From the IMG/VR virus record IMGVR_UViG_3300043468_001158: 64,000 bases of DNA; one strand, 5' to 3'. Positions 35,964 to 62,397 of this stretch are shown here, in pieces. The DNA is from a virus. Lineage: Duplodnaviria > Caudoviricetes. The notes under the pieces were generated by a model. That model saw nothing but the letters and a program-made list of their open reading frames with translations. It had not been told where the DNA came from and did no database searches. Made by a program: the position numbers and the translations under genes. The first letter of the stretch is position 1. Each line of letters starts with the position of its first letter.

Positions 35964-37688
35964 ATGGCAACTTTACAAAGTTACTTCAGAATAATCACTC
36001 CAGTATCGAGTCAGAAGCAATATACTCAATTGCATGCTGACTCGACTAATATGAATGGACCTAACGGGTTCTCAAACGCTGCATCGTCTGTTGCTTTTCT
36101 AACTCAAGTAATGAAAGGCGCTGGAACTCGTATGCAACGATACATTCAGTATGATAGCATGGATAATGATATTGACATCTCTCGTGCTCTTGATATTATC
36201 GCTGAAGAAATATCAAATGACGACGAAACCACCAATCTTCCATTCGAAATAGAGTATCAAACTGAAGATGACCAGGAAGTATCGGAAAATACCGTTACTA
36301 CTATTCGTGCGGCTCTTAGACAATGGTCTCGCGTTCAAGACTTTAGCAATCGCATCTTCCGCATTGGTCGCATTATGTCAAAGTATGGCGACTGCTTCTT
36401 CAAGAAGTCGGCTGATACTAAAAAGTGGGAATACCTTGACCCATCTAAAGTATTGGGTATCTATCTTGACGAAAATGGTGACCGAGTTGCATACCAACTA
36501 AAAGGCGATGGTGGTGGAATGGTTGGATATGCAGGTAAGGTGACTGATGTAGAGGTCGTACCTGCTGCAGGGATTATCCACTTTACCCTGTCTGATGACA
36601 TGGGTGAAAGTGCTCCATTCGGCGAAAGTGTTCTTCAACCAATCTTTAGAACCTTCAAACAGCTTTCAATGTTAGAAGACTCTGTCATCATCTACCGTCT
36701 TGTTAGGGCACCTGAACGTCGAGTCTTCTATGTTGACGTTGGTAATATGCCTCAACAACGTGTTAAGCAATATCTTGAGAACATCAAGAATGAGATACGT
36801 CAAAAGAGAATGCCTAACACAACCAACAATCAAGACGTCATCGACGGAACTTATAATCCTAACAGTATCTCTGAAGACTATTACTTTCCAGTGACTGCCT
36901 CAGGTCGTTCTTCTCGTGTAGAAGTATTGCCAGGTGGCGAAAACTTGGGTGAATTGAATGAGTTGAAATACTTCCGTGAAAAGCTTTACAAAGGCTTACG
37001 TGTTCCAACCTCTTACTTAGGTGGAGCAGATGCACAACCTCAACAATACAATGACGGTAAGTTAGGTGTTGCACTTCTTGACGAGTTACGATTTGCCAAC
37101 TACATCCGTCGATTACAGAACAAGATTGAATGTGTGATGGACGAACAGTTCAAACTCTATCTCAAAACGATTGGTATCAATGTCGAAGATTGGTTATTCC
37201 TTCTTAGATTACCTGAACCACAAAACTTTGGTATCTACCGTCAAAATGCTCTTGACTCAGACTTAATCAATGCATTCAAATCGATTGAAGATGTCAAACA
37301 GTTGTCAATGAGATGGAAACTAAAACGTTACTTAGGCTTAACTGAAGATGACTTGCAAATGAATGAGAAAATGCTCAAACAAGAACTTGAGATTGATGAA
37401 GATGCTAATGTTTCTGATTTACGTCAAATCTATGACCCAGTTCAAATGGAAGCTAGACAAGCCGCGAAAATCAAACCTAAACATATCGAGTCAGATGAAG
37501 CTCCGGCTGGTGGAGGCGGAGGCGGAGATGAGTTAGGTATGGACATGGGAGGAGGAAGCCCTCCTCCAGGTGATGATTTAGGTGGTGGTCTTGGTGGTGA
37601 TTTAGGTGGTGGTCTTGGTGGTGGAGCTGACGACATGGGACTTGGAGCACCAGGAGCCGGTGGTGGCATGGACAATTTAGGTCTATAA
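35964..37688 (+). CDS. gp20: Portal protein gp20
   Basis: LSMLEDSVIIYRLVRAPERRVFYVDVGNMP, EDYYFP, VEVLPGGENLGE, LRVPTSYL; Gly/Asp-rich C-terminal tail. Confidence 0.95.
   Translation: MATLQSYFRIITPVSSQKQYTQLHADSTNMNGPNGFSNAASSVAFLTQVMKGAGTRMQRYIQYDSMDNDIDISRALDIIAEEISNDDETTNLPFEIEYQTEDDQEVSENTVTTIRAALRQWSRVQDFSNRIFRIGRIMSKYGDCFFKKSADTKKWEYLDPSKVLGIYLDENGDRVAYQLKGDGGGMVGYAGKVTDVEVVPAAGIIHFTLSDDMGESAPFGESVLQPIFRTFKQLSMLEDSVIIYRLVRAPERRVFYVDVGNMPQQRVKQYLENIKNEIRQKRMPNTTNNQDVIDGTYNPNSISEDYYFPVTASGRSSRVEVLPGGENLGELNELKYFREKLYKGLRVPTSYLGGADAQPQQYNDGKLGVALLDELRFANYIRRLQNKIECVMDEQFKLYLKTIGINVEDWLFLLRLPEPQNFGIYRQNALDSDLINAFKSIEDVKQLSMRWKLKRYLGLTEDDLQMNEKMLKQELEIDEDANVSDLRQIYDPVQMEARQAAKIKPKHIESDEAPAGGGGGGDELGMDMGGGSPPPGDDLGGGLGGDLGGGLGGGADDMGLGAPGAGGGMDNLGL
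37575..37622 (+). repeat. 24-bp tandem duplication in the portal C-terminal tail
   Basis: GATTTAGGTGGTGGTCTTGGTGGT x2, encoding DLGGGLGG. Confidence 0.9.
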
Positions 37689-56249: not shown

Positions 56250-56432
56250 ATGACTGCTACGTCAGAGCAATTAGGTATCGATGATGCTCAACGTCATCGA
56301 TATCAACTTCTGATAAAAGCAGAAATACTAACAGAGAATGGTGAATATCATCCAAGATGGTTTTCACAAGAAACAATAGAACGAGATAAACAACATAGAA
56401 ATCAAACTCAGAAGAGGAATAACGAAAGATGA
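56250..56432 (+). CDS. Hypothetical protein (60 aa)
   Basis: ATGA overlap with the next gene. Confidence 0.55.
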   Translation: MTATSEQLGIDDAQRHRYQLLIKAEILTENGEYHPRWFSQETIERDKQHRNQTQKRNNER

Positions 56433-56875
56433 CTTCATTACTACAACAAATCAAAGACCGTTCGCTTGAAGCTCGCAAGGCTAAAGCGCCTGAAGCAGTG
56501 TATCTAACAACTTTGTTAGGCGAAGCTTCTCGTCCTGGTAAAGACGATGGCAGTCGTGAAAGTACTGACGAAGAAGTACTGAAAGTTTTGACTAAGTTCA
56601 AGACCGGTGCTCTTGAAATGCTTGATGTCTTCGAACGAGTTGAAGATGTTAATAAGATTATCGTGACCGAACGCGAACTTGCAATCTTGGACAGTTATCT
56701 GCCAAAGCAAATGTCAAACATCGAGCTTGAAAACATCATTGCCAAGTTTGTCGTTGATGCAGATAAGACACCATCAATTGGTATGATTATGGCATACTTG
56801 AAGTCTAACTATGCTGGTCAGTATGATGGTAAAGCTGCTTCAGTATTTGCTAAGTCTGCGATTGAGGAACTGTAG
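56429..56875 (+). CDS. GatB/YqeY-domain protein
   Basis: LEARKAK...LTTLLGE...DEEV...ELAILDSYLPKQMS...GMIMAYLK...YDGK. Confidence 0.85.
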   Translation: MTSLLQQIKDRSLEARKAKAPEAVYLTTLLGEASRPGKDDGSRESTDEEVLKVLTKFKTGALEMLDVFERVEDVNKIIVTERELAILDSYLPKQMSNIELENIIAKFVVDADKTPSIGMIMAYLKSNYAGQYDGKAASVFAKSAIEEL

Positions 56876-56887
56876 GAAATGTAGGAA

Positions 56888-57088
56888 ATGAAAATCAATC
56901 TCCAATTATTTCTTATCGTACTTCTGTTGTTTAGCATTATGCCATTGCTAAAATACTTAGACATTTCTAGACAAACCTCAGAAAATGTGATACAATGCAT
57001 TGGAGATTACAGCTTTTCGCAAGACTTTCTGGATTTTTGGCGACCATATGAAGACGAAAATCCAGAACATATCAGATGTAATGACTGA
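56888..57088 (+). CDS. Small membrane-anchored protein (66 aa)
   Basis: N-terminal TM LFLIVLLLFSIMPLL; stop codon overlaps the 5-prime end of the tRNA-like RNA. Confidence 0.55.
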   Translation: MKINLQLFLIVLLLFSIMPLLKYLDISRQTSENVIQCIGDYSFSQDFLDFWRPYEDENPEHIRCND

Positions 57089-57207
57089 ATAGCTTAATCG
57101 GCAGAGCATCTCAGCTAGGGCAGGGGGTTAGGTTCGATTCCTAACAGATAAGTGGCGCCTGTAAGTCCGCATGAGGTAGGTAGTGGGTTCGAACCCCCTT
57201 TCAGTCA
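57083..57207 (+). ncRNA. tRNA-like RNA whose anticodon loop is replaced by a 58-nt domain with a second T-arm
   Basis: GACTGAA/TTCAGTC acceptor stem; D-arm GCTT-AATCGGCA-GAGC; stem TCTCA/TGAGG; T-loop TTCGAAC; insert contains GTTAGG-TTCGATT-CCTAAC; no encoded CCA. Confidence 0.8.
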
Positions 57208-60671: not shown

Positions 60672-60742
60672 AAAAGTTCAACCGGAGCTAATGGATTATC
60701 CCGTTAAGATACAAACCCATAAGCGTTTTTAGTTGTACTTTT
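60672..60742 (+). ncRNA. Structured leader hairpin sharing motifs with the 61690-61758 insertion
   Basis: AAAAGTTCAAC/GTTGTACTTTT outer stem; GCTAATGG/CCATAAGC inner stem; exact 13-mer AGCGTTTTTAGTT also at 61699-61711. Confidence 0.6.
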
Positions 60743-60776
60743 ACCAAATTGTGAAATAAAGTGGAGAGAAAATTCG

Positions 60777-61136
60777 ATGTACAGACCTGAAGGTATAGGC
60801 CAAGTTATTTGGAAGTTTGCAAAATCTTCTAAAGAAGTTACAATGGAAAATCTAAAAGAAGTCATATCAGAATATTCTGGTATTGTACCTGATATGCTTT
60901 CTGATTATTCTGTGTATGAAGTAGTATTTGAAACTGTTGGTCAAGCAATAGAAGCTGGAGTAATCAGAGCTCATATGTTTAGGGATTTTGCAAATGCAAT
61001 TGTTCCATCTCCATTTTTTAGAAATTATCAAGCAATAGAAGTTCTAACTGAATTGACTATGATTCAGTGTATGATAAATATGATTAGATATGTCCAGGTC
61101 ATAGACGGTGATACCATTTTGATTGACCTGGATTAG
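60777..61136 (+). CDS. Hypothetical protein (119 aa) between the RNA elements
   Basis: GGAG RBS; open frame. Confidence 0.65.
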   Translation: MYRPEGIGQVIWKFAKSSKEVTMENLKEVISEYSGIVPDMLSDYSVYEVVFETVGQAIEAGVIRAHMFRDFANAIVPSPFFRNYQAIEVLTELTMIQCMINMIRYVQVIDGDTILIDLD

Positions 61137-61180
61137 AAAACAAACGAGCCAAACTTATCTTTATTATTGTAGTAAATCGT

Positions 61181-61304
61181 TTTAGAATTGATGTGGTGGT
61201 TCGAGTCCATCCTTCCCCACAAAGTGTTTTATCAACATAGAATATTTTGTGGGGAAGTAGAAGAACAGGCATATTCTGCTCTTATGTGAGTATTCAGTTC
61301 TATT
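61181..61304 (+). ncRNA. Circularly permuted tRNA-like module 1
   Basis: T-arm GGTGG-TTCGAGT-CCATC (61195-61211); CTTCCCC (61212-61218) pairs with GGGGAAG (61251-61257) across a capping hairpin; TAGAATTGA pairs with TCAGTTCTA. Confidence 0.7.
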
Positions 61305-61393
61305 ACAAAGTTATCTTCTTCGTATCGCTCAGCATACGTGACTAGGAAGGCATCTTAACAATTGCAAATAGGCACAATCTTATCATTCTATTA

Positions 61394-61502
61394 TGATAAA
61401 CCGAAAGTCGTGGGTTCGAATCCCATTTCCACCTCCACTTGGTATTGAATAGCTCGTCAGTATCAAGTGGGGTGGAGTAACTCAGTGGTTAGAGTGTCGG
61501 TC
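61394..61502 (+). ncRNA. Circularly permuted tRNA-like module 2 (rejoined halves read as a tRNA with GAU anticodon)
   Basis: 3-prime half TGATAA-ACCGA-AAGTC-GTGGG-TTCGAAT-CCCAT-TTCCACC-T-CCA precedes 5-prime half GGTGGAG-TA-ACTC-AGTGGTTA-GAGT-G-TCGGT-C. Confidence 0.88.
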
Positions 61503-61657
61503 AAATATAACTCAAACTCATCGTCAAACATGTGGGTTATTTGCAAAAAGATGTAAGACAAAGGTTCTTGATGACTGGTGGTTAGACAGGTATGTTCTAA
61601 TCGCTAGTCATTCTATAAAAAAGTATTAGAATAAATAGTATTTTTCTATAGAATAAT

Positions 61658-61793
61658 GTGAATGATAGCTCAGTTGGTAGAGCAGCCGCCATCAAAATAG
61701 CGTTTTTAGTTTTTGTTCAATTCACGTTGAACCGTTGAAAATGATTATCCAAATCCAAGCAGCATGTCATAGGTTCGAATCCTATTCATTCAC
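61658..61793 (+). ncRNA. tRNA-like module 3 with a 69-nt insertion in the anticodon loop
   Basis: (G)TGAATGA/TCATTCA(C) acceptor stem; GCTC-AGTTGGTA-GAGC D-arm; GCCGC/GCAGC stem; ATAGG-TTCGAAT-CCTAT T-arm; 3-prime end TTCA rather than CCA; TAAATA at 61632-61637. Confidence 0.82.
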
Positions 61794-61807
61794 TTCAAAT
61801 TATACGT

Positions 61808-61893
61808 GGCATCGTGGGGGAATTAGGTATACCCAGCAGACTTAAAATCTGCCAGCTTCGGCTATCCCGGTTCAAGTCCGGGCGATGCTACCA
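61808..61893 (+). tRNA. tRNA-Leu(TAA)
   Basis: GGCATCG/CGATGCT acceptor stem, GCAGA-CTTAAAA-TCTGC anticodon arm, long variable arm, CCCGG-TTCAAGT-CCGGG T-arm, ACCA. Confidence 0.95.
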
Positions 61894-61917
61894 ATAAATG
61901 CGAATAAACTAATGAAT

Positions 61918-62397
61918 TTATTCAATACTAACAGCTGAAGAACCGGCTTTTTTCATGTTTTCTAACTCCATTTTTAATCGTTCTATTTCTAAAGCGTAAA
62001 GTTGTGTGCAATCAATTCTCGCAGGTTCTTCTCCAATAGGAATAACAATTCGAGCATAAACTCCAATGTCATTACCGGCGATATTATTAGAAGATTCTTG
62101 ATTAGAATAATAATTATTGATAACTTGTGGGTCTGAACTATTAGATGCATTAGTATTTTTTGTTCCGGTAATACCAAAATCTAATGTAGGGCCAATATGA
62201 GTTCCTTGATTACATGTTGTTCCATCACGTCCTCTAACAGAATCTCCACCAATTGAGTTTTGAGGAGTCATTGGCATCATTGGTGAGCCATAACCATTAT
62301 TTGAAACTATAAGTAATAGTATTATTGAGAAACTTTTGTGGTAACTATAGAGCATGTTCTTAACCTCATTGATTGAGAATCTTTTAGAACCGCACAA
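61918..62397 (-). CDS. Secreted protein with C-terminal coiled coil, third gene of the pilin-like cassette
   Basis: Signal-like IILLLIVSNNGYG (true start probably MLYSYHK); DSVRGRDGTTC...LDFGITG...IGVYARIVIPI...RIDCTQLYALEIERLKMEL. Confidence 0.65.
   Translation of the reverse strand: MCGSKRFSINEVKNMLYSYHKSFSIILLLIVSNNGYGSPMMPMTPQNSIGGDSVRGRDGTTCNQGTHIGPTLDFGITGTKNTNASNSSDPQVINNYYSNQESSNNIAGNDIGVYARIVIPIGEEPARIDCTQLYALEIERLKMELENMKKAGSSAVSIE

Follow-up and report, generated by a model that had tools for sequence, protein, structure and literature searches.

Positions 61140-61800 of a 64,000-nucleotide (nt) stretch of viral DNA (IMG/VR record IMGVR_UViG_3300043468_001158; Duplodnaviria, Caudoviricetes; the whole stretch is hereafter termed the window, or W) harbour a non-coding RNA locus, in which two tandem, circularly permuted tRNA mimics (M1 and M2) are followed by an interrupted tRNA-like gene (M3) and an ordinary tRNA-Leu. 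The RNA lies 3' of a gene of the protein family DUF7873 and belongs to a DUF7873-linked double tRNA-mimic family, not to the YrlA/Ro60 group. This family is widespread in phages and bacteria and apparently undescribed; no paper on the pair of DUF7873 and a double tRNA mimic was found, and the Rfam families all scored below threshold.

The window stems from a jumbo myovirus. It contains baseplate genes as well as genes for a Gp23 capsid protein and for a portal of the T4 type (35964-37688, Pfam Portal_T4), and the closest cultured relative of the portal is found in Ralstonia phage RsoM2USA (49% identity). All sampled words of 61140-61660 are present in 20 lake or freshwater metagenome runs from 18 studies. 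An initial annotation, made from the sequence alone, had noticed about 660 nt without a long open reading frame (ORF), holding three tRNA-shaped modules (two permuted, one interrupted) ahead of a tRNA-Leu. This observation is confirmed: ORFs overlapping 61137-61917 are all at most 57 amino acids (aa) long, and the modules are present as described, with an M3 insert of 68 nt rather than 69 nt. Upon folding, the plus strand is much more stable than its shuffles (z = -9.7; minus strand, z = -4.1).

The features of the locus are compiled in Table 1; L-numbers denote the DNA loci and contigs compared, X1-X5 and X9 RNA runs, and X21 and X22 DNA runs. A search of phage-database DNA with the locus yielded a match confined to the tRNA-Leu, exact-pattern scans of IMG/VR gave zero or chance matches, and a search for related loci seeded with the 119-aa ORF upstream of M1 returned none. 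This ORF is missing in phiRSL1, FBKp24, L038 and L040, and a different small ORF occupies its place in L037 and L039.

Table 1. Layout of the DUF7873-RNA locus (positions in the window)
Feature	Position	Strand	Basis or remark
DUF7873 gene, 254 aa	59864..60628	+	Pfam PF25283, 225 bits; candidate protein partner of the RNA
119-aa ORF between DUF7873 and the RNA, variable occupant	60777..61136	+	3 homologues only
M1 leader: conserved GAGCCA, first UUAUC motif (61150-61159), small hairpin (61160-61176)	61146..61182	+	
M1, permuted class II (tRNA-Leu-like) tRNA mimic	61183..61302	+	
Second UUAUC motif and highly conserved inter-module hairpin CGTATCGCTCAGCATACG	61306..61349	+	
M2, permuted tRNA mimic with interrupted closing helix of 22 base pairs	61350..61554	+	
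Putative M2 processing sites: 3' end at A of CCA, 5' end at G1	61437; 61471	+	
Abundant discrete RNA piece, M2 5' half and closing-helix 3' strand	61481..61563	+	RNA contigs
Pair of long, conserved hairpins separating M2 from M3	61570..61654	+	Fold; conservation in L004
M3, tRNA-like gene, anticodon loop replaced by 68-nt insert	61659..61793	+	Rfam tRNA, 45.3 bits
Ordinary tRNA-Leu(UAA)	61808..61893	+	ARAGORN and Rfam, 51.9 bits
Terminator-like hairpin and T run closing the unit	61933..61956	+	

Structure and covariation of the tRNA-like modules

M2 is enclosed by a three-part closing helix (61350-61376/61531-61554), which is exactly the long GCATCTT/AAGATGT pairing quoted in the initial annotation. 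Inside this helix follow a hairpin (61380-61399), a split anticodon-type stem of 4-5 base pairs (bp; 61400-61404/61497-61501), the T arm (61410-61426), a 7-bp acceptor stem (61427-61433/61471-61477) and the D arm (61480-61495). The 3' strand of the acceptor stem runs into an encoded U73-CCA (61434-61437), a correction to the initial annotation, and the linker between the acceptor strands (61438-61470) forms a conserved hairpin that extends and caps the acceptor. A conserved single strand of 29 nt carries the CUCAUCGU motif.

The near-identical contigs L001-L003 are uninformative for covariation, and the diverged relatives used (L004, L005, L025, L027, L030 and L037-L040) were obtained via neighbouring proteins and a 19-mer scan. 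Across the 12 homologues of the M2 set, 95.5% of cells are paired compared to 67.5% in shuffles, and both sides of the pair have changed in a compensatory manner in 24 of 28 pairs. The covariation score amounts to 0.794 versus 0.24 for shuffles, none of 500 shuffles scores as high, and slid partners reach 0.11-0.17. The long closing helix likewise covaries, and so does the acceptor-extension hairpin of approximately 30 nt, the length, pairing and apical ..AG.. of which are conserved. Eight of the 12 homologues have N73-CCA at the 3' end of the acceptor. In a diverged relative recovered from RNA run X9, both acceptor arms have shrunk to 4-bp capped hairpins. Conservation is highest in the non-tRNA flanks, which surpass the tRNA body itself.

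M1 shares this architecture. Its T arm (61195-61211) is followed by the acceptor 3' strand (61212-61218) and A73 (61219), and the 7-bp acceptor stem runs on as a 14-bp extension to yield a capped helix of 21 bp, before the acceptor 5' strand (61251-61257), a D arm of the class II type (61260-61276) and a short hairpin (61278-61291) complete the module. The initial annotation held that each anticodon stem continues into a long helix, which applies to M2 but not to M1, where the closing helix (61183-61191/61294-61302) has no more than 9 bp and is attached on the side of the variable arm; for this reason M1 resembles a class II tRNA. Compensatory changes occur in 20 of 47 pairs of M1, the discriminator A73 is invariant in the seven homologues examined (7/7), and a covariance model trained on M2 alone (R1) scores M1 at 35.8 bits. 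In Klebsiella phage FBKp24 the D arm of M1, GGCGGAAUUGGUAGACGC, is nearly identical to the D arm of Escherichia coli tRNA-Leu. In the leader of M1, GAGCC and TTAT are invariant in five relatives, and FBKp24 has a near-identical leader directly after an annotated promoter. The CGTATCGCTCAGCATACG hairpin region between the modules is unchanged in W, L004, L005, L025, L027, L030 and L037. The apex of the M1 acceptor extension (61228-61243) shows 88% complementarity over 16 nt to the hairpin 5' of the M2 T arm (61385-61400), a match that may reflect a loop-loop contact or be accidental; relatives differ in the M1 linker.

The initial annotation had raised the possibility that the modules are decayed tRNA pseudogenes. 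Since the stems of M1 and M2 covary across diverged relatives, the sequence comparison already contradicts this notion: the two modules are not pseudogenes, but appear as conserved, covarying, non-decoding tRNA mimics. They are also unlikely to be tRNA precursors, because 7 of the 12 M2 homologues, including L025 and L030 (which are close to W), do not permit a canonical 7-nt anticodon loop (Y32, U33, R37) to be rebuilt, and because of the 4-bp acceptor arms of the X9 relative. The remaining homologues offer inconsistent candidate anticodons. In W and L004, a 32/33 junction would give the loop CUGAUAA, which is part of a conserved hairpin; an assignment of M2 as tRNA-Ile(GAU) was considered but set aside. 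At the "anticodon" position of M1 there is a 4-bp hairpin with a loop of 5-6 nt.

Further downstream, the two spacer hairpins show compensatory changes in L004 (judged by eye), and 61593-61639 is covered by DNA contigs and by zero RNA contigs; the hairpins may represent a spacer that is cut out at an RNase III-type site, or else harbour the promoter of M3 and the tRNA-Leu. In M3, covariation is seen for the acceptor and the T arm; its anticodon stem is weak, and a U33 is impossible. The M3 insert (61691-61758) is conserved and structured and contains AAAAUGAUUAUC; intron-mode ARAGORN models of M3 as tRNA-Phe or tRNA-Gly are implausible. An extra tRNA-like gene (M4), absent from the window, lies between M2 and M3 in L004 (1305-1450), L025, L027 and L030, and its insert is homologous to that of M3 (TTTTTG, a hairpin, then CCG ... 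ACGTTATC).

Homing-endonuclease genes enter the locus without disrupting its helices. In L027 (2450-3180) and L005 (950-1029), the apical loop that caps the M2 acceptor extension houses a GIY-YIG-like endonuclease ORF; the extension helix CCAGGTG/CACCTGG is kept, and a terminator-like CCACC-TCCA-GGTGG-TTTTT precedes the ORF. L003-type strains carry a 786-nt cassette (L003 7931 onward) in place of the 16 nt at 61681-61696 (M3 D arm and anticodon stem), and the adjoining ORF in L003 (minus strand) is a NUMOD3 homing-endonuclease gene. These are the strains in RNA runs X1-X4, and DNA run X21 has both alleles. Elsewhere in the window, a tRNA at 57083-57207 (Rfam 35 bits) bears a 58-nt anticodon-loop insert with a T-arm-like hairpin, GTTAGGTTCGATTCCTAAC, approximately 200 nt after a YqeY/GatB-like gene (56429-56875; PHROG "tRNA amidotransferase"). 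Similar tRNAs of about 125 nt with anticodon-loop inserts of about 50 nt occur in phiRSL1 (L033 6566-6689), where the insert includes the T-loop-like element GGATCGAAT, and in Vibrio phage K479 (L036 3162-3287).

Linkage to DUF7873 and independence from Ro60

A protein search retrieved 857 DUF7873 homologues, and 75 phage records contain the family. The RNA, which starts at about 61146 in the window, is located 3' of DUF7873 on the same strand, and the same order is found in 11 other loci, namely in phiRSL1, Klebsiella phage FBKp24, Rhizobium phage RHph_Y65, Vibrio phage K479, Arthrobacter phage Mimi and the Gordonia phages Ronaldo and GodonK, as well as on four metagenomic contigs (L037-L040). 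In these seven phages DUF7873 lies in or beside a tRNA cluster, followed by a gap of 340-500 nt with one or two permuted tRNA-like modules. A scan for the permuted-tRNA signature detected modules 3' of DUF7873 and almost nowhere else, with one match in 20 shuffled windows.

The initial annotation had proposed to build a covariance model from homologous loci. The genomes of phiRSL1, FBKp24, RHph_Y65 and K479 each contain exactly one R1 match that reaches 80 bits or more, in each case beside DUF7873, and R1 scores the actinophage loci outside its training set at 39-45 bits. RsoM2USA is absent from the 75 phage records with the family and reaches at most 33 bits. The tandem pattern of heads, a first head with class II D arm and A73 and a second head with GCUCAGUGGUAGAGC-type D arm, is likewise found in the window. 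A "tRNA-Sup-TTA" annotated in FBKp24 (L034 6018-6097) coincides in part with the hairpin and the 3' half of its M2; here the permuted tRNA mimic was probably miscalled. On the metagenomic relative L038, an RNA ligase gene (PF09414, 1367-2392) is situated about 600 nt upstream of DUF7873; as a constant companion this ligase was rejected, as it is present in one of five phage genomes.

The 10-mer CAAWSTYATC, reported in the initial annotation at 61150, 61306, 61375 and 61513, is indeed present at all four places. It occurs 8 times in the window versus 1.9 times expected, and 0 of 100 shuffles reach 8 copies. Only a part of it is conserved family-wide: over 11 RNA loci the core UUAUC/YAUCGU is observed 44 times compared to 10.8 expected and to 7 occurrences on the antisense strand, and it recurs in M1 linker inserts and in the inserts of M3 and M4.

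DUF7873 yields a confident predicted structure with a pLDDT (predicted local distance difference test) of 86. Foldseek (PDB, AFDB), VIA-align wide, ESM Atlas (features and shape), PHROGs, NCBIfam and a PDB profile search provided nothing informative on its relatives, and no literature mentioning DUF7873 was found. In an Rfam search of the locus with E values up to 10, ribozymes, GOLLD, ROOL and tmRNA were absent but for weak matches driven by the tRNA parts.

The initial annotation had likened the modules to YrlA RNAs and linked them to Ro60/Rsr. Its topological part holds, as the modules consist of a T arm, a loop-capped acceptor and a D arm, closed by a stem. M1 and M2 might be genuine Y RNAs of the YrlA type, working together with a Ro60/Rsr encoded elsewhere in the phage genome and linking this protein to an exonuclease or RNA-repair enzymes, and some jumbo phages do encode a TROVE protein with a tRNA-like partner (PMC7824862). 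YrlA RNAs are recognized by GNCGAAN0-1G or GGUCCGA near the 5' end and by a same-strand Ro60/TROVE gene within approximately 4 kb (PMC4201824). Both Ro60-binding motifs are absent from 61100-61960, there is no Ro60 gene within 4 kb, the scanned large ORFs of the window include no TROVE protein, and the neighbour of the RNA is DUF7873. The Rfam YrlA model matches M2 with 25 bits, far under its gathering cut-off of 69, and only at model positions 23-85, while M1 gives no match. The DUF7873-linked RNAs of phiRSL1, FBKp24 and RHph_Y65 score 32-38 bits, which is no lower than the 34-37 bits of the RNAs adjacent to Ro60 in RHph_Y65. Yet RHph_Y65 is the only one of the seven genomes carrying the same RNA that has TROVE/Ro60, and its Ro60 gene is accompanied by those separate YrlA-like RNAs of its own. 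The RNA of the locus is therefore YrlA-like in topology but does not qualify as a YrlA member, and a Ro60-bound Y RNA is an unlikely explanation of M1 and M2.

RNA pieces and a proposed RNA-protein particle

The region is represented in contigs of lake metatranscriptomes. In X3 a 130-nt contig of depth 815 spans the 83 nt from 61481 to 61563 with Illumina adapter on both sides, whereas the upstream contig has a depth of 59, and an end at 61563 followed by adapter is also seen in X1 and X2. In X5 a contig of 61259-61436 has a depth of 379, while its upstream and downstream neighbours have depths of 27 and 11. X2 and X4, which are from one sample, hold an RNA contig that joins 61437, the A of the M2 CCA, directly to 61471, the G1 of M2, such that the 33-nt linker is gone precisely between the ends of a mature tRNA; the linker is kept in RNA of another sample (X1) as well as in DNA of the latter sample and of a second sample of the same study (X21 and X22). 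This joint could result from ligation in vivo, from a template switch between processed pieces or from a strain deletion. Joints removing the M3 insert or linking anticodon-side ends were found in none of the contigs of six RNA runs, from which rare forms are dropped.

The contigs fit cleavage at or near both acceptor arms, which would leave a 3' end at CCA and 5' ends that lie about 8-10 nt inward of G1 in M1 as well as in M2, and they fit the accumulation of the pieces between the acceptor arms. In Mycobacterium smegmatis, the YrlA RNA likewise possesses an acceptor of 7 bp; RNase P cleaves this RNA, which ends in CCA in vivo (PMC4201824), and the pattern suggests RNase P-type processing of the M2 RNA as well.

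The reading that we favour and consider reasonably probable is a double tRNA-mimic non-coding RNA encoded 3' of DUF7873, which would be processed at its acceptor ends and may form, with DUF7873, a particle that displays tRNA-shaped surfaces. Each head is a circularly permuted, anticodon-less tRNA body (T arm, extension-capped acceptor, D arm) gripped by its closing helix, and in the clade of the window the double mimic is followed by a third tRNA-like gene with plugged anticodon loop (M3). The precursor would be cut by RNase P at G1 and trimmed to the encoded CCA at the acceptor ends, and therefore would become a base-paired RNA of several pieces with free CCA ends. More tentatively, DUF7873 may bind this RNA, possibly via the repeated single-stranded UUAUC/YAUCGU motifs. 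During infection the particle would offer its tRNA-shaped surfaces to tRNA-handling enzymes or to tRNA-targeting host defences, and M1, with its invariant A73, would imitate tRNA-Leu. The scaffold or decoy role put forward in the initial annotation is a hypothesis.

Several points weigh against this view. The RNA evidence consists of assembled contigs rather than reads, such that strand, exact ends and ratios are beyond its reach. The joint between CCA and G1 comes from one sample (X2, X4) and could be a strain deletion or a reverse-transcriptase template switch. The 83-nt piece has its 5' end at position 11 rather than at G1, and both L037 and the X9 relative are devoid of CCA; acceptor-end cleavage is therefore not universal. 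Moreover, the motif UUAUC/YAUCGU was defined after the data had been seen, some of the 11 loci are related, and the candidate partner DUF7873 has a fold without an informative relative.

To date, tRNA mimicry by Y RNAs is known only in conjunction with Ro60, while here the same architecture occurs with the uncharacterised DUF7873. DUF7873 is carried by phages of Proteobacteria, Actinobacteria and vibrios, usually within phage tRNA clusters. This argues for a second class of tRNA-mimic particles, a widespread one, that takes part in the conflict of phage and host over translation. Since cultured carriers exist (FBKp24, phiRSL1, the Gordonia and Arthrobacter phages), the question is directly testable. 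A bolder and rather unlikely version of the DUF7873 particle would be a Ro60-independent ribonucleoprotein, the RNA of which is cut by RNase P into base-paired pieces with free CCA ends. Its first head, a Leu-type acceptor with invariant A73, class II D arm and no anticodon, would be charged or captured by a tRNA-handling enzyme, and during infection the particle would counter host systems attacking or monitoring the acceptor ends of tRNAs, be it as decoy, as sensor or as adaptor.

Alternatively, the modules could be cis-acting elements for processing or stability of the tRNA operon and the upstream mRNA, without a particle role of their own; this includes entry sites for RNase P or RNase E and a tRNA-like 3' end for the mRNA of the 119-aa ORF and DUF7873. 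In all phages examined the locus indeed lies in tRNA clusters, the putative cuts fall at tRNA-like ends, and an RNA contig of X5 (60700-61229) runs from the upstream genes into M1 and stops near the M1 acceptor. However, two elaborate heads with closing helices and motifs conserved across phyla go beyond the needs of a processing signal, and the excised pieces exceed their flanks at least 14-fold, which renders this explanation distinctly unlikely.

The maturation of decoding tRNAs from the locus, with M1 and M2 as permuted or split genes and M3 as an intron-bearing gene processed by anticodon-side cleavage and ligation, is very improbable. The order of the halves (3' before 5'), the matching acceptor strands and the long leader/trailer helix do correspond to archaeal and algal genes, the CUGAUAA loop is possible in W and L004, and homing-endonuclease genes occupy the linker as they do introns. 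Against this stand the anticodon loops that cannot be rebuilt in the seven M2 homologues nor in M3, and the 5-6-nt hairpin loop of M1. The abundant RNA pieces also cross the supposed splice sites, with neither back-splice nor splice joints in the six RNA runs, and the extension hairpin, which would be discarded, is conserved and covaries. Finally, the X9 relative has 4-bp acceptor arms, and the sequence outside the tRNA body is better conserved than the body. Pseudogenes or scars of homing endonucleases in a tRNA cluster are extremely improbable, despite the invasion of the locus by GIY-YIG-like (L027, L005) and NUMOD3 (L003-type) genes and the precedent of the T4 homing-endonuclease gene SegB in a tRNA cluster, since every helix shows compensatory changes across phages whose hosts belong to different phyla, the locus yields abundant RNA products and the endonuclease insert of L027 leaves the extension helix whole.

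Comparison with known tRNA-like systems

Two-piece tmRNA shares with the locus RNA a permuted tRNA-like domain and, as proposed here, the processing into two base-paired pieces, and M1 weakly matches Rfam beta_tmRNA and tmRNA_permuted. M1 and M2 differ from it by a full D arm and by the lack of G3-U70, of a conserved tag frame and of pseudoknots: at 3-70 there is a G-C pair (M1) or a U-A pair (M2), and L004 does not preserve a short reading frame that is seen in the closing helix. The RNAs C and D of phage T4 (species 1 and 2) are small stable RNAs at the end of the T4 tRNA cluster, and are thus likewise encoded in a phage tRNA cluster that includes a homing-endonuclease gene. R1 matches rnaC and rnaD with only 12 bits over a partial stretch, and T4 is not among the 75 phage records with DUF7873; as members of the family these RNAs were rejected on their R1 score.

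Permuted or split tRNA genes of Cyanidioschyzon merolae, prasinophytes and Nanoarchaeum give rise to decoding tRNAs through bulge-helix-bulge cleavage, ligation and removal of the linker. The order of 3' half, linker and 5' half and the helix of leader and trailer beside the anticodon stem are features in common with M1 and M2. Here, however, there is no conserved anticodon loop, the flanks are the most conserved parts, and the RNA pieces retain these flanks.

The closest likeness in topology is to YrlA (RF02553; PMC4201824; 10.1101/312249), which combines a T arm, a capped acceptor and a D arm with a stem formed from the flanks of the RNA. An optional hairpin 5' of the T arm that starts with YUAY is a further common trait, and the two pieces that YrlA of M. 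smegmatis forms via RNase P and CCA would have a counterpart in M2. The RNA described here differs from YrlA in that it lacks the Ro60-binding motif, is not found beside Ro60, occurs mostly in carriers without Ro60 and scores below the cut-off; instead, it comprises two tandem heads, a conserved acceptor extension of approximately 30 nt and UUAUC/YAUCGU repeats, and it always adjoins DUF7873.

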